64,000 bases of DNA, taken from the NCBI GenBank assembly GCA_002788675.1, contig PFRS01000001.1:234706-298705 (forward strand). The letters are read 5' to 3'. This document shows positions 1,370 to 52,500 of the stretch, piece by piece; the first letter of the stretch is position 1, and the number at the start of each line of letters is the position of its first letter. This DNA is from Candidatus Pacebacteria bacterium CG_4_9_14_0_2_um_filter_40_15. Its GTDB lineage: Bacteria > Patescibacteriota > Microgenomatia > UBA1400 > PJMF01. The notes under the pieces were generated by a model. The model was not told the origin of the DNA. It saw only the letters and a list, made by a program, of their open reading frames with translations, and did no database searches. Both the position numbers and the translations under genes were made by a program.

Positions 1370-3460
1370 ATGGAATATAAAAGAGATATGCTCCACAACG
1401 TTTCGTTGGGGGTGCTTCTAGGGACAATAGCAGCCTCGGCTCTACTTGTGGTCCCAATCACAAATTCATTCGTGACAGATACAAAGGTGTACATTTCATT
1501 GTATGCAGCATTACTAGTTTTGGCACTCTTTATAGTGTCTTCAATAAAACGACGAGCTTTTGAATTCATCTTGAATCCACTTGTGCTTAGTTCTGTTTTT
1601 TTTGCACTGACTATTGGAGCTTCATCATTTTTATCAAGCAAGTATCCAGTCGAAAATTTGCTTGGCTTTGGAGGAACACTCATTGCAAGTGGCATTATTG
1701 CTCTTCTCGCTGGAAGTGTGCTACCTAAGCGTGTTGCAAAACCACTCCTTTCAACAGTTGCAATCACGGGTGCTGTCTTAACAGTACTCTCAGGATTACA
1801 AGCTGTGGGATTTGGACCTTCTGTTATTATCAATAAACTCGTTGGCGCAGAATTACCAGGAACTCTTGTCTTTAATTTAACAGGATCTTCACTCGTAGCT
1901 CTCCAATTTATTGGTGTTGCCTTAGTTGGTGTTATCACCCACATCGTGCACAAAAAACACATTAGTAAAGTATTTGCTATTACGCTTCCTTTACTAGTTA
2001 TTGGTTTGCTGCTTCACGGTTGGTCAATGCTTCCTGGAAAAGATGCATTCGTGCAACTTCCTTCATGGAATGCAAGTTGGTCAGTAGCTTTGGATACTAT
2101 TCGCTCTCCACGTTCTGCACTTATTGGTGTCGGCGCAGCTGGCTATAGAAATGCATATAGCATCTTCAAGCCAACCTGGACCAATAGTACCGATCAATGG
2201 TCAATCATTTATAACCAAGCAGCAAATACTCCTCTCACGTTGCTTACAACAGCAGGGTTCTTAGGACTCATTGCTTGGATAGTACTTGCGCTTAAAGCTT
2301 TCAAAGCAGCACGCATAACAGCAACAGACAACAAGCCAATTGCGTACATGTTGGTGGGTACATTTGCACTTCAATTGGTTCTCCCAATGAACGTGGTTAT
2401 GCTCACACTTCAAGCAATCTTAATTGCTGCACTCGTTGCAAGTGAAAGAGACAAATACTCAGTAGCACGTTTTAAAGCAATGTCTTTCAGTGTAATCGAT
2501 CGAAATCAGGCTGCAAAACTTCCAAGAAAAAGTAGCATGGTAAGCATGTATCTTGGTGCTGGTGTAGGATTCGCTGCAGTAGTTGCAGGTCTTTACTTAG
2601 TAACACGCTCATATATGGCTTTCATGGCTGACCATCAAGCATCGCGCGCTGCTGCTGAAGATAACGCCGTAGCTGTGTATGAACTACAACAAAGAGCCGT
2701 CTCGCTCAACCCTTATTTGGATATGTTCCGCAGAAACTATGCAGTAACTAACTTACTCATTGCTAGCGCCATTTCAAATAATGCAGACCTCACTGAGGAG
2801 CAATCTACTCAAGTCGGAGAATTGTTACAGCAGGCAGTCCGTGAAGCTCGAAGCGCTACCCTCCTTGATGAATCAGATTCAGAAAACTGGGCTACTTTAG
2901 CCGAGATCTACACCAATATGATCGGTGTGAGTGAAGATGCATCACAATGGGCAACTCAAGCATATGTTGCTGCAATCGAGACTAACCCAACGGCTCCAAG
3001 TCTCAGAGTAAGTTTGGGAACTATCTTTGCTAACCAAGAGGCCTATGGCCAAGCTGCAAATATTTTCCAGCAAGCAGTTAGTCTAAAACCAGACTTCACA
3101 CCTGCAGTCTACAACCTAGCTGTGTCACTTGTGAAGCTTGAAGACTGGGTAAATGCTCAAGCAGCATACAAAGCCGTAGTCCAACAACTTGATCCTTCAA
3201 CTGAGGACTACACCAAAGTTATGGAAGAGCTTGACCTCGTCAATGAAAAAGTAGCTGAAATCGAAGCCGCTGCTAAAGCACAACAGGATGCTGCTGCAAA
3301 TGCTACTGGTTCTGAGTCTACTCCTCTTGGTGAAGTTAAATCACCTTCATTAACTGATCAAGTGATCGATGGCGGAAACGCTGTTGAAACCACTCCAGAA
3401 AATGATGTTAACTTAACTCAAGAACAACCTCCTGTTGCTGAAGAGCAACCAGCACAGTAA
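1370..3460 (+). CDS. Polytopic membrane protein, O-antigen-ligase/Wzy_C-like region plus C-terminal TPRs
   Basis: About 12 hydrophobic segments; LIGVGAAGY...N.PL..L...GFLGLIAW resembles the Wzy_C motif; TPR-like repeats (QRAVSLNP, AAIETNP, QQAVSLKPDF). Confidence 0.7.
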   Translation: MEYKRDMLHNVSLGVLLGTIAASALLVVPITNSFVTDTKVYISLYAALLVLALFIVSSIKRRAFEFILNPLVLSSVFFALTIGASSFLSSKYPVENLLGFGGTLIASGIIALLAGSVLPKRVAKPLLSTVAITGAVLTVLSGLQAVGFGPSVIINKLVGAELPGTLVFNLTGSSLVALQFIGVALVGVITHIVHKKHISKVFAITLPLLVIGLLLHGWSMLPGKDAFVQLPSWNASWSVALDTIRSPRSALIGVGAAGYRNAYSIFKPTWTNSTDQWSIIYNQAANTPLTLLTTAGFLGLIAWIVLALKAFKAARITATDNKPIAYMLVGTFALQLVLPMNVVMLTLQAILIAALVASERDKYSVARFKAMSFSVIDRNQAAKLPRKSSMVSMYLGAGVGFAAVVAGLYLVTRSYMAFMADHQASRAAAEDNAVAVYELQQRAVSLNPYLDMFRRNYAVTNLLIASAISNNADLTEEQSTQVGELLQQAVREARSATLLDESDSENWATLAEIYTNMIGVSEDASQWATQAYVAAIETNPTAPSLRVSLGTIFANQEAYGQAANIFQQAVSLKPDFTPAVYNLAVSLVKLEDWVNAQAAYKAVVQQLDPSTEDYTKVMEELDLVNEKVAEIEAAAKAQQDAAANATGSESTPLGEVKSPSLTDQVIDGGNAVETTPENDVNLTQEQPPVAEEQPAQ

Positions 3461-3481
3461 TTCTATTTTGATAGAAAACGG

Positions 3482-3513
3482 AAAAGCGCCAGGCAGAATG
3501 CCTGGCGCTTTTT
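3482..3513. terminator. Bidirectional intrinsic terminator between convergent TPR gene and obgE
   Basis: AAAAGCGCCAGGCA-GAA-TGCCTGGCGCTTTT, 14-bp stem with A/T tracts. Confidence 0.85.
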
Positions 3514-3567
3514 ATTTCTTTTCAAATTTGCTTCGCTAGTCTCTCTTTTCCAGTGAGTTCTCGAACT

Positions 3568-4827
3568 CTAAAGCTCATGAAGTAGTGCGCTGGTGAGCTC
3601 TGGAAGCCCAATTCCGGTTACACCACTAAATAAATGAACAACTATGCCCTTCTTCTTGAAAAGCTTTACAATTTCTTTTTGAAGGTCTTCGGAATACAGA
3701 TCGATTTTGTTCACACTCACTAAATTTTTCTTATCAAATTGCTTTGGATTATGCGTCGTCAATTCTTTTACAAGACTTTGATACTGATTCCACAAAAGTT
3801 GAGCTTTATCCTTATCTGAACTTGCCGTGTCATAAATTACCGACTCATCTAGAGAAAGAACATATAATAATGCTTTTGTATTCTCGATATGACGTAGAAA
3901 ATCGTAACCAAGTCCCTTGCCTTCACTGGCACCTTCAATAAGCCCAGGAATATCGGCAATAACGATCTCTCGATTACTCTCTTGTGTTTGAAGCACACCT
4001 AGGTGAGGTTCGAGTGTGGTAAACGGATAGCTAGCGATTTTTGGTCGAGCTTTGGTCACAATTGAAAGCAAAGTACTCTTACCAGCATTTGGAAATCCAA
4101 CTAATCCCACGTCAGCTAAGAGTTTAAGCTCAAGCAAAACTAAACGCTTTTCACCTTCGGTTCCGTACTCTGCTACAAGAGGTGTCGTAAGTGAGGCACT
4201 CTTAAAACGGTCATTACCTCTACCTCCAAAGCCACCCTGACAGACAACAACTTCTTGACCATGTTCTAAAATAGTAATTAATTCATGTTTGGGAATAGTT
4301 TCATCATTAAGGAGTTTGCTTGGCTGATACTCAATAAAAGCATCAAAACCATCTTCGATATATGAATCTGTTACATCAATCGACGCAATTGGTGAACACA
4401 CAGGTGTTAACTCCTGTGGCTCTGGTCTTTGACCTTCTTGCTCCAATTGATACTTCTGATGAACAATTTCTACCCACTTTAAGAGCTGGTCTGTGCCGTA
4501 CTTCGTTCTTCTCTTACGAGCTATCTTGTTCTCAGCAACGATAAGGATTTTTGTTCCAATTGGAACTTCAAGAACGATACTGGAACCCTTTTTTCCGTAT
4601 TTATTTTTATCGCCACCAAGTTGACCAATCTCTGCTTGGTATGAAACCTGACCTACAAACTCTTTCAAAGTCGAAATATTTTTATTTCCACGAAGAATCA
4701 CTGAACCACCATTACCTCCATCGCCCCCATCTGGGCCACCTTTTTGGACATACTTTTCTCTTCTAAATGACACCCGACCATTTCCACCGTCACCAGCTAT
4801 AAGGAGCAATTTTACTAAATCTATCAT
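3568..4827 (-). CDS. obgE: GTPase ObgE/CgtA
   Basis: Gly-rich Obg fold (GDGGNGRVSFRREKYVQKGGPDGGDGG), G1 GFPNAGKS, YPFTT, DIPG, NKID. Confidence 0.97.
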   Translation of the reverse strand: MIDLVKLLLIAGDGGNGRVSFRREKYVQKGGPDGGDGGNGGSVILRGNKNISTLKEFVGQVSYQAEIGQLGGDKNKYGKKGSSIVLEVPIGTKILIVAENKIARKRRTKYGTDQLLKWVEIVHQKYQLEQEGQRPEPQELTPVCSPIASIDVTDSYIEDGFDAFIEYQPSKLLNDETIPKHELITILEHGQEVVVCQGGFGGRGNDRFKSASLTTPLVAEYGTEGEKRLVLLELKLLADVGLVGFPNAGKSTLLSIVTKARPKIASYPFTTLEPHLGVLQTQESNREIVIADIPGLIEGASEGKGLGYDFLRHIENTKALLYVLSLDESVIYDTASSDKDKAQLLWNQYQSLVKELTTHNPKQFDKKNLVSVNKIDLYSEDLQKEIVKLFKKKGIVVHLFSGVTGIGLPELTSALLHEL

Positions 4828-4867
4828 ACGTTCTCTCTTGCCTAAAAAGGCCAGCTTCTAAAGCTCT

Positions 4868-5977
4868 TTAATTTAAGAAGGAAAGCGGATTAAGCAATCC
4901 TCCCTTTCTAATTTCAAAATGCAAATGAGTACCCGTTGAACGACCAGTGCTTCCCATCTGTCCCAGCACTGAACCCCTAGATACTTGCTGTCCTGCACTT
5001 ACCTGAACAACACTCATATGTGCATATAAACTCACAAAACCATTTCCATGGTCTATCATTACTCTATTTCCATATCCAGAGTTGTCTAGCCAGCCAGCTC
5101 CAATAACTGTTCCTGAATCTGCTGCCAAAATTGGTCCAGCAGATCGATTCGCGATATCAATTGCTTTGTGATAAAAACTATATCCTTGTGTAATTGTACC
5201 GGCTGCAGGCCACAGGAACTGACCAGAACCTGCCCCTTGCACCACATCGACTGGTGTCGGCTGTGCGATCTTACGGACAGGGGCTGCAGTCTGTGGTGGC
5301 ACACCACCAGGAATCATAATCTGCTGGCCTGTTGCCAACTCAAAGGTTTCATCATTAATAAACTCGTTAAATGGATAGTCAACAATTACCTGAGCTTGAG
5401 CACTATCTAGACCATATTTTTTTGCAATCGAGTAAATTGTTTCACCTCGTGCAACTTTATGACGTAAACCATCTACTGGTAGAATTCTTAATTCTTGTCC
5501 TGGCTTGAGCACTGAGTTGTCAGTTAGATCGTTCTCCCACATTACCGTGGTTGAATCTAAATTATATCGAGTAGCAATCGAGCTTATTGTTTCACCGTCA
5601 GCCACAACGTGTCTAATAATTTCTCCACCTCTAAAGCGAGAAACCTCCTCTGCCTGAGAAGTTGAAAAACTATCACCAAAAACTGCAGCAGATATAACAG
5701 TCTGTGATCCTTGACCCTCAAACTCACTATCCTTGTTAGTTAACAACACTGGCCCCACCGTAATCACCAAAAACACCAAACCAATTGTGCCAAAGTGCAT
5801 AAAAGGACGGGTGTACTTACCTCGCTTTTGGTACAAAAGATCAACGAGGATATCTTTAAGTATTTCAAACTTTGAAAACCATTTATATCCCCTAGTGCGA
5901 ATGTACCAACCAACAAAGCGAGTAAACTCGCCCAGATCTGTAAATACTTGTGGTTTCTTAAACACTATTCTCGGCAT
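4868..5977 (-). CDS. LysM-LysM-M23 peptidoglycan endopeptidase
   Basis: N-terminal TM, two LysM repeats (HVVADGETISSIA, HKVARGETIYSIA), M23 motifs HKAID and TGTHLHFE. Start moved to ATG 5977 because the 6013 GTG lies inside a hairpin upstream of a TATAAT. Confidence 0.9.
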   Translation of the reverse strand: MPRIVFKKPQVFTDLGEFTRFVGWYIRTRGYKWFSKFEILKDILVDLLYQKRGKYTRPFMHFGTIGLVFLVITVGPVLLTNKDSEFEGQGSQTVISAAVFGDSFSTSQAEEVSRFRGGEIIRHVVADGETISSIATRYNLDSTTVMWENDLTDNSVLKPGQELRILPVDGLRHKVARGETIYSIAKKYGLDSAQAQVIVDYPFNEFINDETFELATGQQIMIPGGVPPQTAAPVRKIAQPTPVDVVQGAGSGQFLWPAAGTITQGYSFYHKAIDIANRSAGPILAADSGTVIGAGWLDNSGYGNRVMIDHGNGFVSLYAHMSVVQVSAGQQVSRGSVLGQMGSTGRSTGTHLHFEIRKGGLLNPLSFLN

Positions 5978-6001
5978 ACTGTGCTGTGGGTCTATTATAA
6001 C

Positions 6002-6028
6002 AGTCCGCGGCACGAAGTGCCGCGGACT
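6002..6028. other. Perfect GC-rich hairpin downstream of rho
   Basis: AGTCCGCGGCAC-GAA-GTGCCGCGGACT, 12-bp stem with no U-tract; possibly a 3' stabiliser or pause site. Confidence 0.6.
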
Positions 6029-6048
6029 ATCCAGTTTTAAACTACTTC

Positions 6049-7395
6049 TTAACTACTCTTGAGAGAAGCTAAGAACTCCTTATTAGATTTTGTCTTCTTG
6101 AGTTGCTGAATAAGTGTGGTTGTTCGCTCATTACTATCCAACATATCCAACATTCTGTGGAGCGTCATAATTGATTGATAGGTCATTGGTTCAATTAACA
6201 AGTCATCGCGACGAGTACCAGATTTTTGAACATCAAGTGCTGGCCAAATTCTGCGCTCAGCCATCTTACGACTCAAGTGTACCTCTTGGTTACCGGTTCC
6301 CTTAAACTCTTCGTAGACCAAATCATCCATTCTAGAACCAGTCTCGACTAGAGCTGTACCAATAATGGTTAAACTACCTGGAATTTCAAAGTTACGAGCT
6401 GCACCAAAGAACTTCTTTGGTGGAAAGAGTGCGGCTGGATCAAATCCACCAGACAAGGTTCTTCCTGAAGTCGGGATGGCTAAGTTATAGGCACGAGCTA
6501 AACGAGTAATTGAGTCGAGCAAGATAAGGACGTCTTTTCCAGTCTCGACCATTCGCTTTGCTTTTTCGAGGGCGAGTTCAGCAACGCGGCATTGATCTTG
6601 AGCTGCCTCATCAAAGTTACTTGCAGCCACTTCACCCTTACCGTCTGTAAGACGTGCAATGTGTCGCTTAATATCTGTCACTTCTTCAGGACGCTCACCA
6701 ACAAGCACCGCCATAATATGGATTTCTGGATGATTTGATGCCACACCAGTAGCAATATTCTTCAGAAGAGTTGTTTTACCAGCTTTTGGAGGTGAAACAA
6801 TTAGACTTCTCTGCCCTTTTCCAATTGGCGCTATCATATCGATAATACGCAAAGAAAGTGGATCTTCGCCTGTTTCTAACTTAATTAATTCATCTGGATA
6901 TACTGGAGTAAGACGTTTAAACACTGGTCGCTGTAGATTGCGAGCTTCAGCTGCAGGCAAACCATTAATGGTATCAACTCGAGTCATGCCCCAATAGCGT
7001 TCGTTGTCTTTTGGTTCACGAACTGGACCAGTAACTTCATCACCTGGTCTCATATTAAACCTGCGTATTTGAGAGGTAGCAAGGTAAGCATCACCTTCTT
7101 CGTCACCTGAAAGACTCACTCTAACTACTCCATGACCATCTCGAGATAAATCGAGTAATCCAGTAATGATTTTAGTATTTGAATCTTGGTCGTTCTTTTT
7201 ATTCTTGTTGTTAGAAGAAGGCATGCTGTAGCCTTTATCCTTCTTAAGAGGTTGAACTGCAATTTCTTTAAGAACCTCATCTCTCTTTGAAGAGGTTTTT
7301 GAAGTAGTTTTAACTTTTTCTGTCTTAACTGGCTCATCTTGAGCTTCAGGTTTGTTTGTTTCTTCATTTGAAGAAGTTATATTATTTATTGGCAT
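6049..7395 (-). CDS. rho: Transcription termination factor Rho
   Basis: SQIRRFNMRPGD, PIGKGQRSLIVSPPKAGKTTLL, GERPEEVTD, LDSITRLARAYN, YEEFKGTGN. Confidence 0.98.
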   Translation of the reverse strand: MPINNITSSNEETNKPEAQDEPVKTEKVKTTSKTSSKRDEVLKEIAVQPLKKDKGYSMPSSNNKNKKNDQDSNTKIITGLLDLSRDGHGVVRVSLSGDEEGDAYLATSQIRRFNMRPGDEVTGPVREPKDNERYWGMTRVDTINGLPAAEARNLQRPVFKRLTPVYPDELIKLETGEDPLSLRIIDMIAPIGKGQRSLIVSPPKAGKTTLLKNIATGVASNHPEIHIMAVLVGERPEEVTDIKRHIARLTDGKGEVAASNFDEAAQDQCRVAELALEKAKRMVETGKDVLILLDSITRLARAYNLAIPTSGRTLSGGFDPAALFPPKKFFGAARNFEIPGSLTIIGTALVETGSRMDDLVYEEFKGTGNQEVHLSRKMAERRIWPALDVQKSGTRRDDLLIEPMTYQSIMTLHRMLDMLDSNERTTTLIQQLKKTKSNKEFLASLKSS

Positions 7396-7549
7396 ATTCT
7401 TTCTGGAAATAGTTTGTACTTATAAGAATATTTTGTATGAAATCCTAGCGTGTGAATAAGAAGTATTCACTTCTGACATGGCTGGAAACACATTAAAAAA
7501 TCTCTGAAAAATTACCTAATTACTGATTAAAAAAGGGATATTGCCCTTT

Positions 7550-7577
7550 ATTATACTCACAATTGCTTTTTTGTCAA
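7550..7577 (-). promoter_or_regulatory. Consensus sigma70 promoter of rho
   Basis: Minus strand TTGACA-16 nt-TATAAT, giving a 5'UTR of about 150 nt. Confidence 0.75.
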
Positions 7578-7589
7578 AGTTTAGTCAAG

Positions 7590-8378
7590 TTATTCGAGTA
7601 CTTTTTGAGTATTTGTTGTGGGATCAATAAGTCGTGCATACCTAAAGTGACGAATTGGTGATTGTAGATATTTACAGGTGTACAAGATTAAATCGGCGTT
7701 ATAATCTGTAATCTCGTCACCCTCTTCACCTGAATAGATCTCGTATTCCCACTTTCGATGATCAACAATTATCTCTACTCTGTCACCGGGCTGTGTGTCT
7801 GGAAGTAAGTAAAATGAATTGTACTTCCAATAATCTGTTTGCCACCACCACTGCCATCCAAATCGATGGGCAGCAACTATCATAGGCAATCCTGTACCAT
7901 CCCCTGGTTTACCAAAGTCTGGCACCCACCAGACACCCTTTTCTAGGGCTTCTTCTGGCGTAGCTGTTGGTCTGAGTTGCGTATGCACACCAATAAGTGG
8001 AATAGAAATCCAATTGCCATCTGGCAATGTTTCATCATAATCAGGCTGGTACTGATATTCTTCTTTGTTCTCAACCGTCTGTTCTGTAGTGTACTCTCCT
8101 CCATACAGAGAAACTACCTCTGGTGGCTCAAGGGTCACTATATCAGCAGGAAAAAAGAAATAATATACAGCAGGAACAACTAAAATAGCAGCAATAAGGA
8201 CACTCAGGCCAATCAGTCCAGACAAGGCAACATTTATTACTGAAATAAGCCAAATAGGTAGTTTGTTTGTCTTTTTCTCGATTTTTCTGGCAGAAGAGAT
8301 AATAGAACCAGTCAACGCAGCCCGAGTTCGTGGAAATGTCGTTGAAAAAAAGCCAGATTTTGATTGGACAGTGAGCAT
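7590..8378 (-). CDS. Sortase family protein
   Basis: N-terminal TM, ISIPLIGV, L.KGVW, AAHR (His), LILYTC (Cys) and downstream Arg. Confidence 0.85.
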   Translation of the reverse strand: MLTVQSKSGFFSTTFPRTRAALTGSIISSARKIEKKTNKLPIWLISVINVALSGLIGLSVLIAAILVVPAVYYFFFPADIVTLEPPEVVSLYGGEYTTEQTVENKEEYQYQPDYDETLPDGNWISIPLIGVHTQLRPTATPEEALEKGVWWVPDFGKPGDGTGLPMIVAAHRFGWQWWWQTDYWKYNSFYLLPDTQPGDRVEIIVDHRKWEYEIYSGEEGDEITDYNADLILYTCKYLQSPIRHFRYARLIDPTTNTQKVLE

Positions 8379-8481
8379 AGCTCTCTCAAGTATACAATAT
8401 TATTATAGTCATTAATTATAGCATTTTTTGCTTGGAAAAGCAATGTTATGGGATAATATGGTCGAAATATCAAATAAGAAA

Positions 8482-8507
8482 TTGTCCCTAGACCAGGCTA
8501 GGGACAA
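8482..8507 (-). terminator. Intrinsic terminator after the 103-aa ORF
   Basis: TTGTCCCTAG-6 nt-CTAGGGACAA, followed by a T-rich run on the minus strand. Confidence 0.7.
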
Positions 8508-8521
8508 AATAAAGAGGAAAT

Positions 8522-8833
8522 TTAGAGCTGGGTCATGTCAAGATTATGGATATGATCAACAACTGAAATAACTTGCCCCACTGCGGCTGCTGTATCAATT
8601 GAAATTACATACGCTTCAGGCTCAGTTCTGGCTAAGCGACGTAAAACAGCATGACCTCGTTCTTGATTGTGGAAGAAAAGTTGCACCTCTTCTCGTCTAC
8701 CATCAAAGAAGAAAGGTACTGCCAACTCATGGTTTACAACAAATTCTGGAAATGAGTATTCATTGAGCCGAAAAGTAACAATCATTCCGGGTTCAGCACA
8801 AAAACGAACAATTGGTTTTGCCACAACAATCAC
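8522..8833 (-). CDS. Small hypothetical protein (103 aa)
   Basis: ORF with its own TTGAAT-16-TATAAT-like promoter (~8926-8953) and its own terminator. Confidence 0.6.
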   Translation of the reverse strand: MIVVAKPIVRFCAEPGMIVTFRLNEYSFPEFVVNHELAVPFFFDGRREEVQLFFHNQERGHAVLRRLARTEPEAYVISIDTAAAVGQVISVVDHIHNLDMTQL

Positions 8834-8974
8834 CTCTTTTAAGAATTCTTGCTCTGAAACAGTCAGAGCGCCTGCTTACTTAGTTTCACCCAAGCGACCT
8901 TCAGATAAGAAGGAATTAAGGGGTTATTATAACCCACAACTGTTTATATTCAATGAATAGGTTGATTAATCAAC

Positions 8975-9375
8975 AAAAAAGAGGTAGTAAGTGGAAGCTC
9001 AACTGCCTGCCCAACTGTCAAACTTCCACATACTACCCCTCAATATTTAGACTAAGAGTATATTTTGATATAGTAAGATGATATTTACAGGGTGCGACCC
9101 CTGCGTTACTATCAGCGTACAAGTGTTTTGACCTAGTATTGAAACACTTATCTGAGAAAAAAGCATTGTTACTCGTGGTCTGTCCAGCGATAATAATGCT
9201 TTTTTTGTACTTGTTCTTCTTTTTTGCTTCATTCACCCTTAATCACCCACTTTAACGCCGTTTATTAAGCAGCTCAACGGTATCTCTAGATGTATCTATA
9301 ACAATAGAAACACAAGTAAATCAAAATATATATTAATGTTCGTTAGTGATACCAGTCAGAGATATCACTCTCATT
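8975..9375 (-). ncRNA. Candidate ~400-nt structured ncRNA of unknown family
   Basis: Promoter TTGACG-17-TATACT (9410-9382); several internal hairpins; 11-bp long-range helix 9320-9330/9059-9069; ends in a ~23-bp hairpin (8981-9039) plus T6; no convincing ORF. Confidence 0.5.
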
Positions 9376-42932: not shown

Positions 42933-43565
42933 TTAGCGAGGAAAAGCCTCTGGCTGAGTTGCTTCTGTGCTTAATTGACGCCCCCAGTTGAGCATAAAGG
43001 TTTCTGTGTCGGTTGGTTCAAAATGCCAAGTTTGATTAATAACTTTATTTGAGATGTTGGCAACAATTACTAAGCCTTCATCTAAAAATACGTGTGCTTT
43101 AACATTTTCATTCACTTGAGGTGCGAATAATTCAAAGTCGGGCTCACCATAGAGAGTGATGTAGTTTGAAAGTGTATTGTTTTCATCGAACTTTGCTGGA
43201 ATCTGAATAAATTCGACAATTCCTTCTTTATTTACGAGTATCTCATTATGATAGGCTGCAAAATGTTCAGAGGAATAGGTAATATGTTGTTTTTCAGCTG
43301 GTAGATTCTCAACTTCGAGAGGTTTTCCTAACTCTTCGAGCAGTTTTGGAGTCAGTTTAAATCCAGGAGTTAGGCCTTGCCATGTGTTTTCTTGAACGGG
43401 AGGTTCTTCAATGGGAATAAACTGTTGAACTGCTGATGCGATTACCAGCAACACTGCCAAGACAGCTAAAAAGATGAAAATAATTTTTGTATATTTATTT
43501 TTTTTTGGTTGCTTTGATTGCTCGTACGCTTGATTCTGGTATTTGTGGGCATTTTGTTGTTGCAT
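42933..43565 (-). CDS. Single-TM exported protein, translationally coupled to the upstream gene
   Basis: ATG overlaps the upstream stop (TAATG at 43563-43567); TM, then WQGLTPG...LGKP and YGEPD repeats (SmpA/BLIP-like pattern). Confidence 0.7.
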   Translation of the reverse strand: MQQQNAHKYQNQAYEQSKQPKKNKYTKIIFIFLAVLAVLLVIASAVQQFIPIEEPPVQENTWQGLTPGFKLTPKLLEELGKPLEVENLPAEKQHITYSSEHFAAYHNEILVNKEGIVEFIQIPAKFDENNTLSNYITLYGEPDFELFAPQVNENVKAHVFLDEGLVIVANISNKVINQTWHFEPTDTETFMLNWGRQLSTEATQPEAFPR

Positions 43566-46500
43566 TAGTATTCTATCCCTCCAAAAATATTTTCTTGAAT
43601 CCATGCATATTCTACCGGATAGCGAGACTTGAATGGGAACATGCCTGTCCAGCCATCATTGCTGAAGCTGAGTGTTTGCCAGACAACATAGTCTACAACA
43701 GCTTCTGCAAATGCTTCACCCTCTGAACAGTTACCCGGAACTGGATAGGTAAAGCAGCCGGAATCTCCGGGAAGCGGAGAGGTCTGAATTGCTTTGAATT
43801 GTGTTTGTAAATCTGGCATTGATGGAACAGCTGGTTGGTTTCTAGCATTTATCATATGCCCAGTTTCATGGACTATGGTGTATTCCATCCATTCCACGCT
43901 TGAATTAAAGAAGTCACCGTAAAAACCAATTTTTTCGGTGTTCACTCTCCAACCATAGTATCCTTGAGGGCTTGGTGGCCATTTATGTAGTGAAATATCG
44001 CCTTTTTCACAGAGAAGTGACAAGTACTTGGGATTAGTTCCAACCTTGCTAATAAATGCTCTTAGGAATTTTATAATGTCATCTTTAGTCCACTCAACGG
44101 AGGTATTTACGATAGTTTGGCCAGCGTCATTTTTATATTCTGTTGGTTGATCAGCAGGGGCAAACTCAAAACATCCAATCGGAGGATCTCCTATAATTAA
44201 CATACCGAGTGCCGAGATACTTTCTCCTTGTATTAGGAGCTTTCCGCTGCCGTCATATACGTCAACAACAAAGGTAACGGTATTAATTACCAATGCATCT
44301 TCACCAGAAATTGGCAGCGTATATTCAGCTGTTTGAACGGTTGAAAATTTTTCTTGATCAAAGTTATCAATAGTTAGCGGAGAGTCTGGAACTGTTGCCT
44401 CACCGCCAAGAACCAAAAATTCGTCAGTGACGCGTTTAATTTGCAGGGCATAGCCAGGCTTGGGAAGTATTTTAATTTCGTATGAAATGTCCTTTTCCTC
44501 ATTGTTGTCAATTTCATCAGGCGTTGGTGTTTTTACTATAGTTGCGTATTTAGAGACAGTTGGAGTGCCTTTACTAATGGTAAAGGGCATCGGTACCAAA
44601 AAAGCACCCATGATGACCATAAAAACAATCAATGTCATAAATCCAGGCAAAATAACACTTGTCCCCACTGCGATTGCGGGAAGTGAGGTTAAAAATGAAC
44701 CAGTAGCTGCTGCAGCAGCTTGCAGTCCCGATACTGTTGCAGCCGCAGGAGCAGTTGCTGTCGCGGTGGATCCAGCAACGGCTTGTTGACCGATGTTAGT
44801 AACAGCCTGTACAGCATTGCCTGTTCCTTGAATAACCCCATTTGCTGCTGCTTGGGTACCTTTTGCAATTTGGAGAGGTGTTGTAGCGCTTGTTCCGCTG
44901 CCAAAGACGGAGTTTGCTCCAAATGAGGGAGCGCTGAGCCCTGCGCTAGCAGTACCAGTGGCTGGGCCCTTGCCTATGAGGTTCATGAACCAATTTTGGG
45001 CGGCTAGACCTGCGTTGGCGCCAGCAGACACTCCTAAAAATATAGCGAGTGGGCTTCCAACTCCAAGTACGCCACCTATAATTCCACCAGCAACTCCTCC
45101 AATCATACCTCCCACAGTTTGAAGGGCTTGAATGGTTTTATAGATCAGGGCGCCAACAGCGCCAGCAGTGAGACCAGTTAGGGCTAGGGCTAGTTTTTTT
45201 GTATTTTCTTTACCAATAAGTAATTCAAGTGCTCGAGCTCCAGCAACAACTGCAGTACCCACTCCGGTACCCATAGCAAGTTTTTCTGCAATTTTTTTTG
45301 CAGCTTCGGTTTTGATTTTGCTTGAGGCTGGGTTACCAGCTGCTGCCTTAAATGCGCCCGAAAGCTTTGATGCTGTTCCGGTAGCGGCAGCGACATTATC
45401 AGAACCTGATCCAGTTTTTTTGTTTGAGTCTCCGCCCGATGAGATTTGTTGCTGTGAGACGACCATTTCTTGCAAGCTTTGTTGATCGAGCGGCACTTGC
45501 TCATGCATCTGATCTAAAACTTTTTCATCAATTTGAATTACGAACTCGTTTCGAATGTGAAGGGATAGTGTTTCAGCTCGTTGAACGGTTACAACATATT
45601 CGTTCATCTCTTGAGCTATTGCTAGTTGCTCAAGTTGCGCTTCTTCAGCGACTGTTTGTTCATCAATAATTATTTGAGTGTACTTTTTTAAAAATTTTGG
45701 ATCGAGTTCAGCAATGTTAATTGGCATGGGATATCCCTCAGGAGGATGTTTGCCATCTGGGGTTGGATAATATGCTCCCAGTAGTGCCATTGCAACTGCC
45801 TGTTCTTCAGGTTTAAGGCTGCGCCAAGTTAATCCAAATATTTTTTCATTTTGTTCAAGAGCACGTTGAATTTTTTTTCCTGTTTTATCACTTGTAGTTG
45901 AAATTGCATCTGCAGTAAGTTCACCCTTTTCATCACCACTTGATGCATGAGAAGTAATGGTGTTTCTTACACTGTTGATCAACTCAACTGATTCAGCAGA
46001 GCCCAGGTCTGCATCACCAATAAGACCATCTTTAGTTTTTTCTTCTTGTGTATGTAGTGTGAGTTCAGACACTCTAATTTCAACAAATGAAACAAGAGTT
46101 CCCTTAAGGGCTTCAACTTGATCAGGAGTTAAATCATATGCGGAAAGACCAAATATAAGTTCAATTTTTTGTTTATCAAATGAACTAATAAGCCCAATGG
46201 CTTTGTCACCATGGGTAATCGCTATACTTTCAACAATTTTTTCAACATTTTTATCAACTACTGGATTTTTATCATTAATAATTGAATGCAGTTTTTTCTC
46301 AAAAATTTCTTGAGATGAGCGAACCTCGTTAAATTGAGGAACATTATTTTTTTCGTAAAAGTTTTTTTCTCTAAGTAGTCTGCTTAATCCTCGTATAGCT
46401 TTGAGTCGGGCAGTTGGACTACCAGAAAGCAGAGCTGCTAGGTCACCTTCTTTACCTAAATATTGGGTAGCGTAGTCAGTTAATTGGGCCCTCAATGCTG

Positions 46501-47308
46501 GATCAAGGTCACTCATCTCAACACCCATGCTGTCCGCAATTTGAAGCATAGTGAAGCTCGTCATCCAGCCGACACTAATGCCATATTGTTTTAGTTGTTC
46601 TTGGGAAAGTTGTTCGTTGAGTGGACGTTTAGGATCAATTACTTGATCTTTTTTGAGAAGTGTTTCAGATGCATCCTCGTCGTCTTCAGCATCACCGTCA
46701 CTTGTGTTGGGGGTATTACTTTCACTGAGTTCTTTTCTGAGTTTAATTTTAATATCCTCAGCTGCTTCTTGTGTTTCTACTTCCTCAATAATTTCATCTT
46801 CTTCTTTTTCTGGTTCAGGTTCATCACTTTTTGCAAAAGCAAGAGCTAGTTTATTTGCTAGCTCAGCAATTTCATGTCTTTTTGTCCATGTTGTTAGTTC
46901 GTCGACGACGTCAACCGGTGTGTTAGAAGCAGAAACCCAAGACTCAAGTTGTTTTTCGGTTGTTGCATATGCTTTAAATGCTTCTCGAGAAGCGGAATTT
47001 CTGAATTTTTGAGCTAAGTCGAGCAATATTGCCGCATAATCAGACCAATAAAAATTGTCATCCTGTTCTTCTATTGGGACACCATCTCTTGTGTAATGAG
47101 AAACAGTTAATTCATGTATGTTGCGATCTGAATCAAGAGGAATTCTAACAATCAAGCCAGATTGTAATTCTTCATTACGAACTACTTTTTGGAGCTCTTT
47201 AAGTACTTCTTCAAGTTGAGGACGATTCCGTTTTAATGACAGAGAAGAATTAAGTCGTTTTACGTCTTTAATTTTGACTTCTTCTGGAAGATTATTGTCG
47301 GCTGCCAT
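43565..47308 (-). CDS. Large membrane protein with Gly/Ala-rich hydrophobic core and C-terminal zincin metallopeptidase motif
   Basis: Charged helical N-terminus, GxxxG-rich helices, TM, Ig-like strands, IVHETGH...EAFAE. Confidence 0.75.
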   Translation of the reverse strand: MAADNNLPEEVKIKDVKRLNSSLSLKRNRPQLEEVLKELQKVVRNEELQSGLIVRIPLDSDRNIHELTVSHYTRDGVPIEEQDDNFYWSDYAAILLDLAQKFRNSASREAFKAYATTEKQLESWVSASNTPVDVVDELTTWTKRHEIAELANKLALAFAKSDEPEPEKEEDEIIEEVETQEAAEDIKIKLRKELSESNTPNTSDGDAEDDEDASETLLKKDQVIDPKRPLNEQLSQEQLKQYGISVGWMTSFTMLQIADSMGVEMSDLDPALRAQLTDYATQYLGKEGDLAALLSGSPTARLKAIRGLSRLLREKNFYEKNNVPQFNEVRSSQEIFEKKLHSIINDKNPVVDKNVEKIVESIAITHGDKAIGLISSFDKQKIELIFGLSAYDLTPDQVEALKGTLVSFVEIRVSELTLHTQEEKTKDGLIGDADLGSAESVELINSVRNTITSHASSGDEKGELTADAISTTSDKTGKKIQRALEQNEKIFGLTWRSLKPEEQAVAMALLGAYYPTPDGKHPPEGYPMPINIAELDPKFLKKYTQIIIDEQTVAEEAQLEQLAIAQEMNEYVVTVQRAETLSLHIRNEFVIQIDEKVLDQMHEQVPLDQQSLQEMVVSQQQISSGGDSNKKTGSGSDNVAAATGTASKLSGAFKAAAGNPASSKIKTEAAKKIAEKLAMGTGVGTAVVAGARALELLIGKENTKKLALALTGLTAGAVGALIYKTIQALQTVGGMIGGVAGGIIGGVLGVGSPLAIFLGVSAGANAGLAAQNWFMNLIGKGPATGTASAGLSAPSFGANSVFGSGTSATTPLQIAKGTQAAANGVIQGTGNAVQAVTNIGQQAVAGSTATATAPAAATVSGLQAAAAATGSFLTSLPAIAVGTSVILPGFMTLIVFMVIMGAFLVPMPFTISKGTPTVSKYATIVKTPTPDEIDNNEEKDISYEIKILPKPGYALQIKRVTDEFLVLGGEATVPDSPLTIDNFDQEKFSTVQTAEYTLPISGEDALVINTVTFVVDVYDGSGKLLIQGESISALGMLIIGDPPIGCFEFAPADQPTEYKNDAGQTIVNTSVEWTKDDIIKFLRAFISKVGTNPKYLSLLCEKGDISLHKWPPSPQGYYGWRVNTEKIGFYGDFFNSSVEWMEYTIVHETGHMINARNQPAVPSMPDLQTQFKAIQTSPLPGDSGCFTYPVPGNCSEGEAFAEAVVDYVVWQTLSFSNDGWTGMFPFKSRYPVEYAWIQENIFGGIEY

Positions 47309-47370
47309 GATTCGATTATACCAGGGAAAACAGTAGTTAGAAAGTTGGCATGTTAATTTTTTACTTTAAA

Positions 47371-49287
47371 TTATTTGGAGAAAGAGGCAATTTGTGATTT
47401 AAATTCATTTTGGTTTGCTTGAAAGACGGTAATAATTTTTTTTGCCGTTTTTTCTGGTTCTAACACAAACTCTGAAAGATTTACTTTTTTTGAAAGATAT
47501 AAAAGTATTGGGTGAGCTAATATTCTCACAGAATCGAAGAACTCATTGAAGAGAAGATCGCTCACATCCACAGATTTCTTTAATGATTCTTTTAATAGAA
47601 ATAATACATAGTCAAAGCTTTTCATGTCCTCATTATTTGAGACACCTTTTTTAAAGGCACTTTCAAGAACAGAAAAACTTTGTTCAGGATTATTGAGCAA
47701 ATCATTTTTAAGATTTTGACGTAATGCCTCTAGCTGAGCATGTTCGGATTTTGTTAAAACCAGATCATCATTTCCGCGAGAGTCACCTCTCAGGGCCCAA
47801 CCACAAGGTCCAATGGGTATGCCGTCTTCAGATAACTGGAGAGAATTTGATTTAAAGAAATCAGAGTATTCCTTGTGGTGTTCTGCTTTAATGAACCAAG
47901 TTTCTCCATTAGATAAGCGAAGTGGTAAATACTGCAATGTGTTTAGATAGTGTAATGCCTCAATTTTTTCTTTTGGTCCTAGGCTTGTTAGCATGCCTGG
48001 AATTGTTGGAATTGGTATTCCTGGAATAGCAGAAAGTATTTGTTCTGACATCATTCTAGTTGGAATAAATGTGCCTATGCCACATTGTCCAAGGCTTAAG
48101 CCTTTTGAAGTTGTTGAGAGAAGCATATTAGAAAGTGAATTATGCTCATCCACTAGATCAGATTGAATTTTTTGACCATGTAGTTTTCTTACATTTAAAT
48201 CATATATTTTGAGTAATCCATTTTTAACTTTATCTTGAGTAAGGTCTTGAATTTGCAGATCTGATGTATTATTGCTTTTCATTAACTTCAAGTAGTTTGT
48301 TTTGTTTGTGTTATTTGTATCACTCCCTTCTACCCACTTTATGAGTGGTTGATAGGCGAGAATGCCAAAAGCAATATCCAACTGCTTAATGAGCTGAGCG
48401 TATTCTTTTGACTGAACAAAATTCATCCAAAGTGGGTCAGTATGACTTTCAACTTCGGGTACTTTTGATAGTAATAGTGGAATAACTTTGCTAATATACA
48501 GGCTTAATAAAAAGTCCCTAAATTGAGCATATTTTTGTTCATCAATTTGTGGCATTTCGTGTGGTTTAACCTTCCAGGAATCAGATGACGAATAGGCTTT
48601 TTTTTCTAGTAATGAAACACATTCAAGTGTGGTGGAACAGTTTAAGTCTTTGGGTGAAACGATTTGTGTGTTATTAATTATTTTATGCGAGTCTATTCGT
48701 GAAGAGTTATCAAAACCTTCGTTTTGGGTAATGAACTTTTGAAAATCCAAATGATCTTGAAGGCTCATCCATGTTCTGTACTGATGAAGTACTACTGTGG
48801 TAGGTGAAGTCTTTTCATATACAAAAATAAATGAATGTGAATTAAGTCCAGCATATCCCTCTGAGACTAGCCCAGGAGGACTGTTCCAAACAAATAACTG
48901 GCCGACCGGTGCGGTAGAAGACCACAAGTCAAGTTTAATCATGTTGTTGGTTTCAATTTGGGCTCGACTTGGTGATTTTTTTTGATTGATGAGTTTATCT
49001 TCAAAATGTTCACCCATACCAAGAATACCTGCGGTGTAAGAACTCATCATTCCAAGAAGTCCATTCTGTTGATCGACGTCCATCTGAAAAGCAGAAATTA
49101 CTTCACCTCTAGTATATTCAGCGGCAAACGAAATGAAATTAGCTGTTAACAGTGTTGAAAGTGCATCAAAATCACGATATTCAGATAAAGCCGCGATGCG
49201 CACATACGCTGCGGCATCCCATTGATCAAACTGACTAACAACAGCTTCTTTCTGATTTATAGGGTTGCGTGATTCTTTTTGTAACAA
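47371..49287 (-). CDS. Hypothetical protein (638 aa) downstream of the riboswitch
   Basis: Long ORF with TTG start after GAGGAG; motifs WNSPPG...GY...SF.F, GQCG, GPCG; no family recognised. Confidence 0.8.
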   Translation of the reverse strand: MLQKESRNPINQKEAVVSQFDQWDAAAYVRIAALSEYRDFDALSTLLTANFISFAAEYTRGEVISAFQMDVDQQNGLLGMMSSYTAGILGMGEHFEDKLINQKKSPSRAQIETNNMIKLDLWSSTAPVGQLFVWNSPPGLVSEGYAGLNSHSFIFVYEKTSPTTVVLHQYRTWMSLQDHLDFQKFITQNEGFDNSSRIDSHKIINNTQIVSPKDLNCSTTLECVSLLEKKAYSSSDSWKVKPHEMPQIDEQKYAQFRDFLLSLYISKVIPLLLSKVPEVESHTDPLWMNFVQSKEYAQLIKQLDIAFGILAYQPLIKWVEGSDTNNTNKTNYLKLMKSNNTSDLQIQDLTQDKVKNGLLKIYDLNVRKLHGQKIQSDLVDEHNSLSNMLLSTTSKGLSLGQCGIGTFIPTRMMSEQILSAIPGIPIPTIPGMLTSLGPKEKIEALHYLNTLQYLPLRLSNGETWFIKAEHHKEYSDFFKSNSLQLSEDGIPIGPCGWALRGDSRGNDDLVLTKSEHAQLEALRQNLKNDLLNNPEQSFSVLESAFKKGVSNNEDMKSFDYVLFLLKESLKKSVDVSDLLFNEFFDSVRILAHPILLYLSKKVNLSEFVLEPEKTAKKIITVFQANQNEFKSQIASFSK

Positions 49288-49308
49288 AAAACTCCTCGAT
49301 TGAGGAGC
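49286..49308 (-). terminator. Riboswitch expression platform: terminator / SD-sequestering hairpin
   Basis: Minus strand GCTCCTC-AATC-GAGGAG-TTTTTTG; the 3' arm is the SD of the TTG start. Confidence 0.65.
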
Positions 49309-49366
49309 AGGGGCGGTTACCTTGAGGAAACAAAGAGTAATGCCCGATGCTCGTCGGTTTATTTTT

Positions 49367-49443
49367 CCTCACCGACCGGGCTTAGCACTTTAGATGCATT
49401 ACCGTTGCGGCACAGCTCTGGATTCACACCAGATTCCGTGAGG
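49367..49443 (-). promoter_or_regulatory. Compact cobalamin-type riboswitch aptamer
   Basis: Minus strand CCTCAC-GGAA-TCTGG-TGTGAAT-CCAGA-G-CTGTGCCGCAACGG-TAA-TGCA..TGC-TAAGCCCG-GTCG-GTGAGG: GGAA, T-loop P4, CCGCAAC loop, GTAA and AAGCC B12-box elements in order, closed by CCTCAC/GTGAGG; TTGCAA-17-TAAAGT promoter immediately upstream. Confidence 0.8.
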
Positions 49444-49589
49444 TTCTATTACTTTACTCACAATTAGGTGTAGTTGCAATAGGAAAACTTGATGAAAACG
49501 CAATAAAATTTTCTTTTAAGTCACTAAATTGCTCAGATTTTACACTCTTCAATACACCTGTTTAACATCGAGTGAAGATGATATAATTA

Positions 49590-52500
49590 ATGAGTATGGG
49601 TAGATCAGAGTCAATATCAACACCACTATCTGAACAGTACAAGGCGTTAGTTGTTGATCTTGTTAATGCTATTAAGGCTAAGGATTTTGTTTCAGCTGCT
49701 AACAAAATGTCTGATATTCAGATGGTCATTTCGTATGAGATAGCCACTACAGATTATTCGAATCTAGATAATGAACGTAAATACCCAGGCCTTGCAGATT
49801 TTAATTATTTTTTTGGTGATATTGAAACAGATTGGCAAGAGATTCCCTATTTAGCAGCCCAGATTTCAGATGTGGAACCCGCTGCAGCAGTTGTAGCGGA
49901 TGATGTTGAGCCGGTAGCCTCCAAACCTGTTGCAGCTGAAGCTCCCGTAGCCCCAGAAAATAAAGAAAAAACATGGATTCAAGAATATGAAGAGAAGAGA
50001 ATAGCGTTGGCTCGACTAACGTATGCAACTCAAAAAGCTTCTGATGCAAGCTTTGCTCAAAACTTTGATTTCTTTAATGAGCTTTTAGCTGCAGATGAAG
50101 AGACGGATATTCAAGAGCTTATTGATTCAAATAAAATTGATCCGGTTGATCATTCGATTGTTGAAAAAATTAACGAACTTGTTGCGGAAATAAACCTTAG
50201 GATTCAAACTGAGTCTCTTGGAGATGAAAAAGAAAAATATGATGTTCAAAGAGAGCTAGTAGGACAATTAAAAGAATCTGTTAGATCATTTGAACCAGTA
50301 CTGGTTGCTAACAAACTATTTACTGATGTTGTCTCCTCTTATAGTTCAATACTTGTCGTAAGATCAACGTTTGACCCAGGATCCTATGATTCAATAGATC
50401 TGTTTGAAGCAGAACTAAAAACAACAACAAAAAAACTTGCTGGCATAACATCAAAGATTGATGCTTTAGATTCGATTTCAACACAACTTGATCAAAAAGA
50501 GAGAGTTAATTTTTTGCGAGAAGTTGTCTCACGAGTTTCTCGAATAATTTCAAATGGAGAAAATGAAGTTGAAACCTCTCGCAAACTCTTACAAGATGCT
50601 GAGTATATTGACTTTGTTGCAGAAGTTGATAAGAAAACAGAACTTTCCAGTCTTACTTCTGAAGTTGCTCGTCCACCAGCAGATGTCACTACGTCTGATA
50701 TAGATATTGATCGAAGAATTGACAGGTTGAAGCAAAAACTTGCTGAGTTTAAGGCCGCTATACAAGCAGACCCTTCGTTTAGTGATGCTGCAAAAGAACA
50801 GTATTTAAGAACTGATTTTAATGGTTTTGAAAAATCTGTGACAGAAAAAGCAGCATTACTTCAATTCCAAATGGATTCTAATACCACTTATAGAAAGTTG
50901 CTTGATTTAACTACAAAAGTTGCGGCAGGTGTTTCTGAAGATGAGCTGGAAAAAATTCGAGTAGAGGCAGAAAGCTACAATGGTCAAATAACAGAGTTAG
51001 AATCACGCAAAGATGCTCAACTTACTACGTACGTTGATACCCTTACTAAGGTCTATTATGATCTGTTAAAAGTCACAAAATCTAAGATTGAATCTGAAAG
51101 AAAGACGTCAGTCTTTAAAAAGCTTGAAGAAAGATTAGAAAAAGCCACTCAAACAGCAACATACGTTGTTGATTCTCATCACGATGAAGTATGGGAGACA
51201 TATGAATCTATACAACAAGCCTATGAGTCGTTTGCAGAATCATACGGAAGCAATGAAGAATTCGAAAAGAAACTTAAAATTGAATTTTATAAAATTTATC
51301 GAAGATCCATGCTTGCTGCACTTGATGAAATTGAAAGAGAAGAGCAGCCGTCCCCAGCATGGAAATCAATATTTCAAGATAAAATACTTGGAAAATCACA
51401 AAATCTTGTTCAGGATATTGTTGGAATTAGTCTGGGTAGCTTAGATGATTTTACTGAGGCAGTAAAAACTAAAGGGACTGCTGGTGCAGTTACGGTAGAT
51501 ACTCGAACCTTAACACTGCATGAGCAAAATTTAATTGAAGATTTTAATAAACTCAGAACAGAGTACGTGTCAAGAAAGTTTTTACATCTCAGCTGGACTG
51601 CAAATAGAGTTGGTGTTCTTGGTAGAGGTGAAGGAACAAGAACCTTTCCAAACTTAAATATAGATGAAAATTGGCCAATTGGTGTCGTACTTAACTACCT
51701 AATGAAGGATGGACTTCGAAGTAGTGAAGTAGGAGATGGTCAAATCTTAAGTGAAATTACCAATCCGATTATGGAAATTCAAAGGGTCGATCACCCACTT
51801 GGATTCTCGACAGATGCGGACGGAAATTTAGTTGCAACAGAAGGTGATGTTGCTCTATACGATGCTTCGAAAAGAGGTACAACCAAGCATGACGTTGCAC
51901 TTTTTGAAGATGTCTTCCTGGCGATGGATGATTGGGTTGCCGGCACTATTAAAGCAAGAAGAGGCACGGGAGATGTTCATAATGATGTTGATGGTGTAGC
52001 TGAAGACATCATGCTGTTCTTACAAAAAAAATATCCAGATAGAAAAGATGAAATAACAAAAGGAGATGTAAGAAGAGCTGTTAGATCATATCTTATCGTT
52101 ACGTATCATCAGTCGGTGAGATCGCACCGCAGTGCGATTTTATCAGATAAAATGATGTATCAGTGTTCATTTTACCTGTACAGTGAAAAGTATTCTGAGG
52201 ATGGTACTGCTGGATGGAATCCGAATTTTGTTAAGGCCATGTATGCCTATCCGTATCCTGCAGGATCTGATCTGAGCAGGGTAGATCCAATGTATGTGAC
52301 TAAGGGAAATTATGTGAATACGATTCCTGTGATTCTCGGAGAACATCCTGATATTGATGCTGAAAAACATTGGATATTTAGGGTTCTTGAAGGTAAGCCT
52401 TTTACTCAAATGGAGAATGCTTTGCGCGATGAAGGCTTTTTGGTCGACATGCAAACAGCATTTAATCATTCTGATGGAAGACCTAAAACCTTTGCTGAAC

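Follow-up and report, generated by a model that had tools for sequence, protein, structure and literature searches.

The window analyzed here is a stretch of 64,000 nucleotides (nt) from Candidatus Pacebacteria bacterium CG_4_9_14_0_2_um_filter_40_15 (contig PFRS01000001.1), which we take to be an ultrasmall groundwater bacterium. On the minus strand of this window, the open reading frame (ORF) for a protein of 638 amino acids (aa) is preceded by a leader that, judged by its sequence and predicted folding, is a cobalamin-family riboswitch. Corrinoid binding is predicted to switch the gene off, and a role in the supply or handling of vitamin B12 is likely for the protein. We assign this reading a probability of roughly 70%. 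If it is true, then the protein would be made under B12 shortage and would act in the acquisition, processing or sparing of corrinoids. The riboswitch, the leader hairpins and the gene all lie on the minus strand and comprise the following features:

49451..49479, minus strand: promoter, with the −35 element TTGCAA (49479-49474), a 17-nt spacer and the −10 element TAAAGT (49456-49451).
49367..49443, minus strand: aptamer from P1 to P1, 77 nt, recognized by its match to RF01482 and by covariation in P4, the P6 base and P1.
49443-49438 and 49372-49367, minus strand: P1, in which CCTCAC pairs with GTGAGG.
49415-49404, minus strand: invariant L5 region, CTGTGCCGCAAC.
49344..49357, minus strand: P13 hairpin CCGA-CGAGCA-TCGG, whose loop (49353-49348) is the predicted L13 kissing partner of L5.
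49302..49355, minus strand: predicted anti-sequestor/antiterminator helix, in which GACGAGCA..GGGC (49355-49342) would pair with GCCC-C-TGCTCCTC (49314-49302).
49308-49291, minus strand: terminator-like hairpin GCTCCTC-AATC-GAGGAGT that sequesters the Shine–Dalgarno (SD) sequence, found by a terminator scan.
49297-49292, minus strand: SD sequence GAGGAG, 4 nt upstream of the start codon.
49291-49286, minus strand: T-run.
49287-49285, minus strand: TTG start codon.
47371..49287, minus strand: ORF for the 638-aa protein, with a TTG start that agrees with the N-termini of homologs in the alignment.

The leader promoter matches the consensus at eight of 12 positions by hand count and is not listed by a consensus scan that requires at least nine. 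A promoter of the form TTGCA(A/T)-17-TAnAnT occupies the same position in four other close leaders (L003 to L006), in agreement with the promoter assigned in the preliminary description of this DNA.

Comparison of the 501-nt leader region with Rfam covariance models reveals a match to RF01482 (AdoCbl, for adenosylcobalamin) that spans the full model (positions 1-149) at 49325-49457, with a score of 47.7 bits and an E value of 9.2e-8. The curated gathering score of RF01482 is 50, and because the window copy lies 2.3 bits lower, a default Rfam gathering scan of the window yields zero matches and an E-value scan is needed. The scores for two related models are likewise under their gathering scores, with RF00174 at 26.3 bits versus 31.5 and RF01689 (AdoCbl-II, or class IIa) at 19.2 bits versus 36.5 (E = 0.056). 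The element resembles the AdoCbl-II class in its minimal P6, yet is not filed there. Its place in Rfam clan CL00101 is indicated by the significant full-length match to RF01482 and by junction helices that carry compensatory changes. According to the Rfam scan, it is the sole such element in this genome of 1.22 Mb and 10 contigs. Orthologous leaders exceed the RF01482 gathering score in 13 of 151 genomes of the order, with scores of 50.4-66 bits.

An alignment of 32 leaders was analyzed with RNAalifold, which recovered P4, the P6 base and P13. Four covarying pairs in P4 show 17, 16, 13 and 11 double changes, one pair at the base of P6 shows eight, and three pairs in P13 show nine, nine and 16. 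Pairing in P1 is kept in 14-16 of the 16 type-A leaders, with two to three pair types per position. These findings bear out the cobalamin-type aptamer of ∼77 nt that had been recognized earlier by eye. The L5 sequence CUGUGCCGCAAC is invariant across leaders, and L13 reads GAGCA, or GAGCGA in the second of three platform types found among leaders of the order. GAGCA is present too in classical leaders with the same L5. The GCC of L5 and the G(A)GC of L13 are complementary in the window, where the Rfam consensus has CcC and GAGG, and we infer that the outer L5/L13 pair has been kept by a double change relative to that consensus.

A corrinoid is the predicted ligand, on the basis of an identical core before TonB-dependent receptors and of B12-dependent genes that are present in this genome and lie beside the element in relatives. 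A metagenome scan with an invariant 20-mer from the aptamer core identified 11 loci, three of which were set aside as chance matches within coding sequence. Two loci (L012 and L017) carry the identical 20-nt core upstream of TonB-dependent receptors, and four others (L011, L013, L015 and L019) combine the same aptamer core with a classical platform; the genes after the leaders of L013 and L019 encode small proteins whose N-termini are hydrophobic.

The genome also encodes enzymes that would use the cofactor. When proteins of relatives were used as tblastn queries, an AdoCbl-dependent ribonucleoside-triphosphate reductase of the RTPR type (734 aa) was found on another contig (C10:23279-25498). 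It matches TIGR02505 (RTPR) over its full length with 248 bits (E = 1.4e-73), which does not reach the cut-off of 340 bits, and it matches PDB entry 1L1L with an E value of 1.6e-40. The enzyme is divergent, and is 69%-82% identical to weakly scoring reductases in five relatives of the same family. Searches of the genome with Pfam families PF02867 and PF02310 (reductase and B12-binding) were blank. Since tblastn found the C10 reductase, the PF02867 result is read as a sensitivity miss. NrdD was not found by Pfam search of the genome, and no ribonucleotide reductase other than the RTPR-type enzyme was detected. The genome also encodes a PduO-type adenosyltransferase (144 bits), and BtuR (PF02572) was not found in it. 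A corrinoid transporter was not detected in a search confined to the FecCD permease family, whose best score of 26.3 bits falls under the cut-off. Given the reductase and the adenosyltransferase, the cell appears to import cobalamin, adenosylate it and need it for the synthesis of deoxynucleoside triphosphates (dNTPs). The picture of an organism with no B12 link, which the preliminary description implied, is not supported in view of these two enzymes.

The same evidence bears on whether, as had been suggested earlier, a variant ligand is sensed in place of cobalamin; another host-derived tetrapyrrole or metabolite would be an example. Although scores below the gathering value for all three Rfam models and a target outside the classical B12 gene classes would be compatible with such a ligand, the core is identical to that of classical leaders of TonB-dependent receptors, orthologous leaders in the 13 genomes noted above exceed the gathering score (up to 66 bits), and the element lies beside NrdJ and BtuR genes in relatives. 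Because the genome also encodes the RTPR-type reductase and the PduO-type enzyme, ordinary B12 homeostasis suffices to explain the switch and a variant ligand is unneeded. We regard a non-cobalamin ligand as extremely improbable.

The riboswitch is linked to the gene family of the 638-aa protein as well as to B12 genes. A set of 5.8 billion proteins contains 13 full-length relatives, and the same leader stands before the homolog in all four genome loci that encode close relatives. Scores for RF01482 are 45.2 bits in L005, 44 in L004 and 40.9 in L006 (L008 represents the same genome as L006), and the leader of L003, which has a long P6, was recognized by eye. A search of metagenome contigs for related loci returned no relative. 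Two loci from the 20-mer scan (L016 and L018) carry the same leader type, and the protein of L018 is 25% identical to the 638-aa protein over 613 residues. A distant family member in L022 (family hidden Markov model [HMM], E = 5e-27) and a distant homolog in genome G259 are also linked to the riboswitch. The association of riboswitch and gene noted in the window thus holds in the four close loci and in the distant L018, L022 and G259, and the leader is found in addition before one unplaced protein. In five of 110 family proteins, three of them distant members, the annotated N-terminus is an overcall that consists of translated aptamer core.

Across the order, matches to RF01482 with E ≤ 1e-3 occur in 68 of 151 genomes and are nearly always single. 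Carriers make up 19 of 24 genomes in the organism's own family and 20 of 24 in a sister family. Among the matches listed, at least 28 of the 68 genomes have a PF02867 (NrdJ) gene on the same strand after the riboswitch, at a distance of 1.6-6.7 kb, and in at least 23 of those 28 the distance is 2.0-2.6 kb. These counts are lower bounds, as about 150 of about 365 matches are listed. An arrangement with nrdJ genes ∼2 kb after the riboswitch is seen in a sister lineage. In the one locus that was annotated in full (G459), the riboswitch is followed by a 442-aa protein, NrdR, three NrdJ proteins (TIGR02504, 621-714 bits), Maf, BtuR and a VirD4-like protein. The three tandem NrdJ paralogs after NrdR span positions 3063-9348 of locus L061 (G459:C1:82500-98500). 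Many genomes of the order have four to nine PF02867 matches, and it is unusual for genomes of ∼1 Mb to have so many class II reductases. Inteins or fusions may be present in some open frames of 1000-1660 aa.

Seven groups can be distinguished among the ORFs that come first after 29 riboswitches. A profile of 104 sequences from the 638-aa family matches the first genes of L022 and L026, as well as five of 13 members of a group of 440-490 aa (E values of 1e-11 to 1e-5) that includes the 442-aa protein described above. The hhalign value for the relation of this group to the 638-aa family is 95.5%, and the part that they have in common is the N-terminal domain. The broader profile was needed for this result, because an HMM built from the A1 alignment only (see below) recovers one of the 29 downstream proteins. 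A relation to the 638-aa family was not detected by profile search for the groups of ∼250 aa or for two other first-gene groups, and groups c2, c3, c5 and c6 are unrelated or doubtful (38% by hhalign for c6). In other genera of the organism's own family (L023, L025, L027, L034, L037, L038 and L047), the riboswitch precedes a protein of ∼230-280 aa that has no Pfam match and, in genome G181, is followed by an OmpR-type response regulator (L062 1199-2792). The B12 switch has in this protein a second orphan target, unrelated to the first.

The proposed direction of switching derives from a conserved complementarity between GACGAGCA, which forms the 5′ part of P13 and its loop, and UGCUCCUC, the 5′ arm of the last leader hairpin. 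The base pairs that extend this helix covary, and are GGGC/GCCC in the window, GGGCAUGCG/CGCAUCCC in L004, GGGCUUGC/GCAAGCCU in L005 and GAGCAUCGGAA/UUCCGAAGCUC in L016. In all seven leaders examined, minimum-energy folding of the transcript as it stands just before GAGGAG is synthesized yields the GAGCA:UGCUC helix. Once the platform is complete, the helix state and the SD-hairpin state differ by 0-4 kcal/mol. The last hairpin is kept in seven of seven leaders and its T-run in five; L004 and L005 have lost the U-run, which leaves SD occlusion alone. In the window, this hairpin has the SD sequence as its 3′ arm and the start codon inside its U-run, and it is both terminator-like and SD-occluding, as first described. 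Five type-A leaders of unrelated genes (L023, L025, L027, L034 and L037) have the same helix overlapping a clean GCUCCC/GGGAGC-U6 terminator far from the ORF, so the last hairpin derives from a terminator.

Other candidate pairings did not withstand comparison. Three had been proposed in the preliminary description, of which CCTCAC/GTGAGG stands as P1, whereas the other two are present in the window sequence but not kept in homologous leaders. For GTCGGT/ACCGAC, the B12-box side is altered without compensation in L004 and L005, and TGAGGAAA/TTTCCTCA has an analog only in L003. A role for the 3′ strand of P1 as an antiterminator against UCCUCA was also rejected, because this complementarity is not conserved.

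With ligand bound, L13 would kiss L5 through GCC and G(A)GC, and P13 would be locked. GCUCCUC would then be left to pair with GAGGAG, so that transcription is terminated and the SD sequence is hidden. With ligand absent, GACGAGCA-UC-GGGC would pair with GCCC-C-UGCUCCUC and the SD sequence would be free. This layout is predicted to be an OFF switch, since the helix that competes with the SD hairpin also competes with P13, and P13 itself is clear of the SD hairpin. In some leaders (among L016, L018, L038 and L047), P13 is directly followed by five to eight U residues, and in these a ligand-stabilized P13 might itself serve as an initial terminator upstream of the main hairpin.

The opposite direction would make the 638-aa protein B12-induced, either as an enzyme that depends on B12 or as a partner of the reductase that does. 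A natural corrinoid riboswitch that activates its target is known (PMC10327014), and in relatives the gene has B12-dependent NrdJ and BtuR as neighbors. An ON switch is nevertheless very unlikely, given the repressing layout just described and the type-B leaders, where the SD sequence comes directly after P13 as it does in env8 in the excerpted account of that riboswitch (PMC5028336).

The 638-aa protein belongs to an undescribed family, here termed X, which comprises about a hundred clusters at 50% identity. It has no match in Pfam, NCBIfam or PHROGs, in keeping with the earlier statement that the target lies outside known B12 gene classes, and likewise no transmembrane (TM)-like window was found in the protein. 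Of the 97 representatives of the family, 72 were scanned with Pfam, and none has a match above a curated cut-off, with one sub-threshold match to DUF4456 seen. Neither the protein nor the 72 representatives match the reductase families searched (PF02867, PF13597 and the NCBIfam reductase models). A PDB profile search gave only E values above 0.1, and in the ESM Atlas no score reached 0.9 and no useful family emerged.

Conservation within the family is confined to few positions. In the 13-sequence A1 alignment, the invariant residues are R108, S136-P137, Y145, C402 (in GQCG) and C495 (in GPCG). An alignment of 99 sequences leaves only R108 and S136 invariant, with E57, P137, Y145 and G147 conserved at ≥90%. 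Two Cys columns, the probable counterparts of C402 and C495, are conserved to the same level. A full-length structural model has a predicted local distance difference test score (pLDDT) of 70.5, and a model of the N-terminal domain from 99 sequences has a pLDDT of 95.4 and a predicted template modeling score (pTM) of 0.91. Foldseek found no match at E ≤ 0.001 with either model. The best VIA Z scores are 6.6 for the full-length model, with helical bundles only, and 4.6 for the N-terminal domain, with PAS-like rows near 4. These domain matches are too weak for naming a fold, and the absence of a family or fold match does not exclude a known fold for the protein. From its genomic associations, the protein is likely to be B12-related.

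Another function connected with B12 would be a B12-independent back-up for dNTP supply, such as a new radical partner, a reductase or a salvage enzyme, in place of a factor that handles B12. B12 riboswitches classically repress B12-independent isozymes. A distant homolog heads the nrdR-nrdJ cluster of G459, NrdJ follows the riboswitch in the genomes counted above, and the two conserved Cys columns would also be compatible with such an enzyme. However, the protein shows no similarity to reductase, radical-SAM or nucleotide-salvage families and matches no solved fold, and the G459 locus shows neither an activase nor a small-subunit gene next to it. We therefore consider this function improbable.

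The 638-aa gene forms one end of a type IV secretion cluster that continues with PrgI, VirB4 and then dnaA and dnaN. A co-oriented run headed by the 638-aa ORF and continuing with a zincin protein, its partner, PrgI, a putative TraC-N-like protein and VirB4 had been described previously. The PrgI and VirB4-like domains are confirmed by Pfam, whereas the zincin assignment is reduced to a HETGH motif. The features next to the gene are as follows:

43565-47308, minus strand: 1247-aa gene, the next gene, with no Pfam, NCBIfam or PHROGs match.
47315..47323, minus strand: extended −10 element TGGTATAAT of the 1247-aa gene, 6 nt before its ATG.

The 1247-aa protein carries HETGH at residue 1147 and two TM-like segments near 738-765 and 876-914. 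An extended −10 of the form TGnTATAAT lies within 2-8 nt of the ATG not only of this gene (47315-47323, minus strand) but also of the 1260-aa gene on the opposite side (49579-49587, plus strand), for which the start listed at 49590 is a poorer fit than the second ATG, at 49596. This arrangement suggests that both large flanking genes are transcribed into leaderless mRNAs.

The location of the gene raises the question of whether the riboswitch gates the whole secretion run (the 1247-aa gene, its 223-aa partner, PrgI and VirB4), such that B12 would control a type IV machine. The genes of the run are on one strand, and the terminator scan finds no terminator between the 638-aa and 1247-aa genes. 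L003, L005 and L006 share the order of X, ∼1240-aa, ∼208-aa and ∼400-aa PrgI-like genes, the gap in L005 being just 8 nt, and a VirD4-like gene closes the NrdJ/BtuR cluster of G459. In contrast, the 1247-aa gene has a −10 element of its own, as had been pointed out before, and the secretion and 1247-aa genes do not follow the distant X homologs of G520 and G259 or the riboswitch-linked 654-aa protein of G517. NrdJ is downstream instead in the genomes counted above. Since only the closest relatives show the adjacency and a separate promoter serves the 1247-aa gene, the riboswitch would control the secretion genes partially at most, and we consider control of the whole run unlikely. Based on the loci compared, the conserved unit is the riboswitch plus its first gene. 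Riboswitch control is thus probably limited to that gene, as the preliminary description had also surmised; the general link to secretion that it drew is not sustained.

Several observations weigh against a B12-repressed factor for B12 supply or handling. The window copy scores below all three Rfam gathering scores, and the kissing of L5 and L13 is a predicted pairing. The full platform keeps the SD hairpin at equilibrium in six of seven leaders when folding is unconstrained, for which reason the switch decision would be kinetic and made during transcription. In 14 of 29 other riboswitch loci (c2, c3, c5, c6 and L042), no relation of the first gene to the 638-aa protein has emerged. A role in uptake is not obvious, because the protein has no family or fold match, no TM segment and no signal peptide. 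Moreover, B12 repression beside B12-dependent enzymes fits several functions equally well.

A more speculative proposal is that the 638-aa family represents the B12-starvation arm of host exploitation by an epibiont, as a cytoplasmic or secreted factor that takes corrinoids or substitute deoxynucleotides from the host. It leans on the position of X at the head of a type IV cluster here and near nrdJ/btuR and a VirD4-like ATPase elsewhere, and we consider it quite improbable. If it is true, then a cofactor-sensing RNA would be the first known regulator to tie host piracy to the DNA-precursor supply of a parasite.

The riboswitch env8HyCbl is reportedly the subject of a 2012 structure paper and has a class-II architecture. 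The window element shares with RF01482 and with env8HyCbl (PMC5028336) a compact junction core with a short P6, a conserved B12-box region, a P13 loop placed to kiss L5 and predicted repression by ligand. By score, the window copy is 2.3 bits under the gathering value of RF01482 and far under that of RF01689. The kissing-loop principle is that of env8, whose ribosome-binding site is located within L13; in the window, ∼35 nt separate P13 from a distinct SD/terminator hairpin downstream, and the signal would be relayed by an intermediate helix. A second point of comparison is the repressing corrinoid riboswitch of Priestia megaterium metE, for which Procknow et al. (PMC10327014) describe three-state logic. 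The predicted switch of the window has the same logic, with a P13 that would be stabilized by a kissing loop and a terminator that follows. The metE riboswitch has a different aptamer class and different L5/L13 sequences, and in the window the terminator also sequesters the SD sequence, with the start codon in the U-run. The window target is an orphan protein rather than metE.

Quinonero-Coronel et al. (2025; PMC12102498) describe type IV secretion genes of Patescibacteria that are clustered next to dnaA. The 638-aa gene ends such a cluster, and this adjacency is lost outside the closest relatives. The words "riboswitch," "cobalamin" and "B12" do not occur in the available text of that paper. 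We found no description in the literature of a native cobalamin riboswitch in Patescibacteria (the candidate phyla radiation). Among the publications listed that combine riboswitches and Patescibacteria, none appears to concern a native riboswitch, and one refers to riboswitches solely as synthetic tools.

Comparative genomics from 2003 onward has described operons for ribonucleotide reductases that are controlled by B12 riboswitches. The present system is similar in the physical linkage, seen in relatives, between a cobalamin riboswitch and reductase genes. It differs in that the adjacent reductases are B12-dependent NrdJ enzymes, the gene directly under the switch encodes an orphan protein, and the reductase of the window genome is located on another contig.

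How Patescibacteria acquire and manage cofactors is largely unknown. The presence of a single B12 riboswitch in this genome points, without annotation bias, to a gene that is wanted when B12 runs short. The 638-aa gene would therefore be a concrete, expressible candidate for a missing step in B12 handling, and its compact natural riboswitch could serve as an inducible system in the genetics of Patescibacteria.

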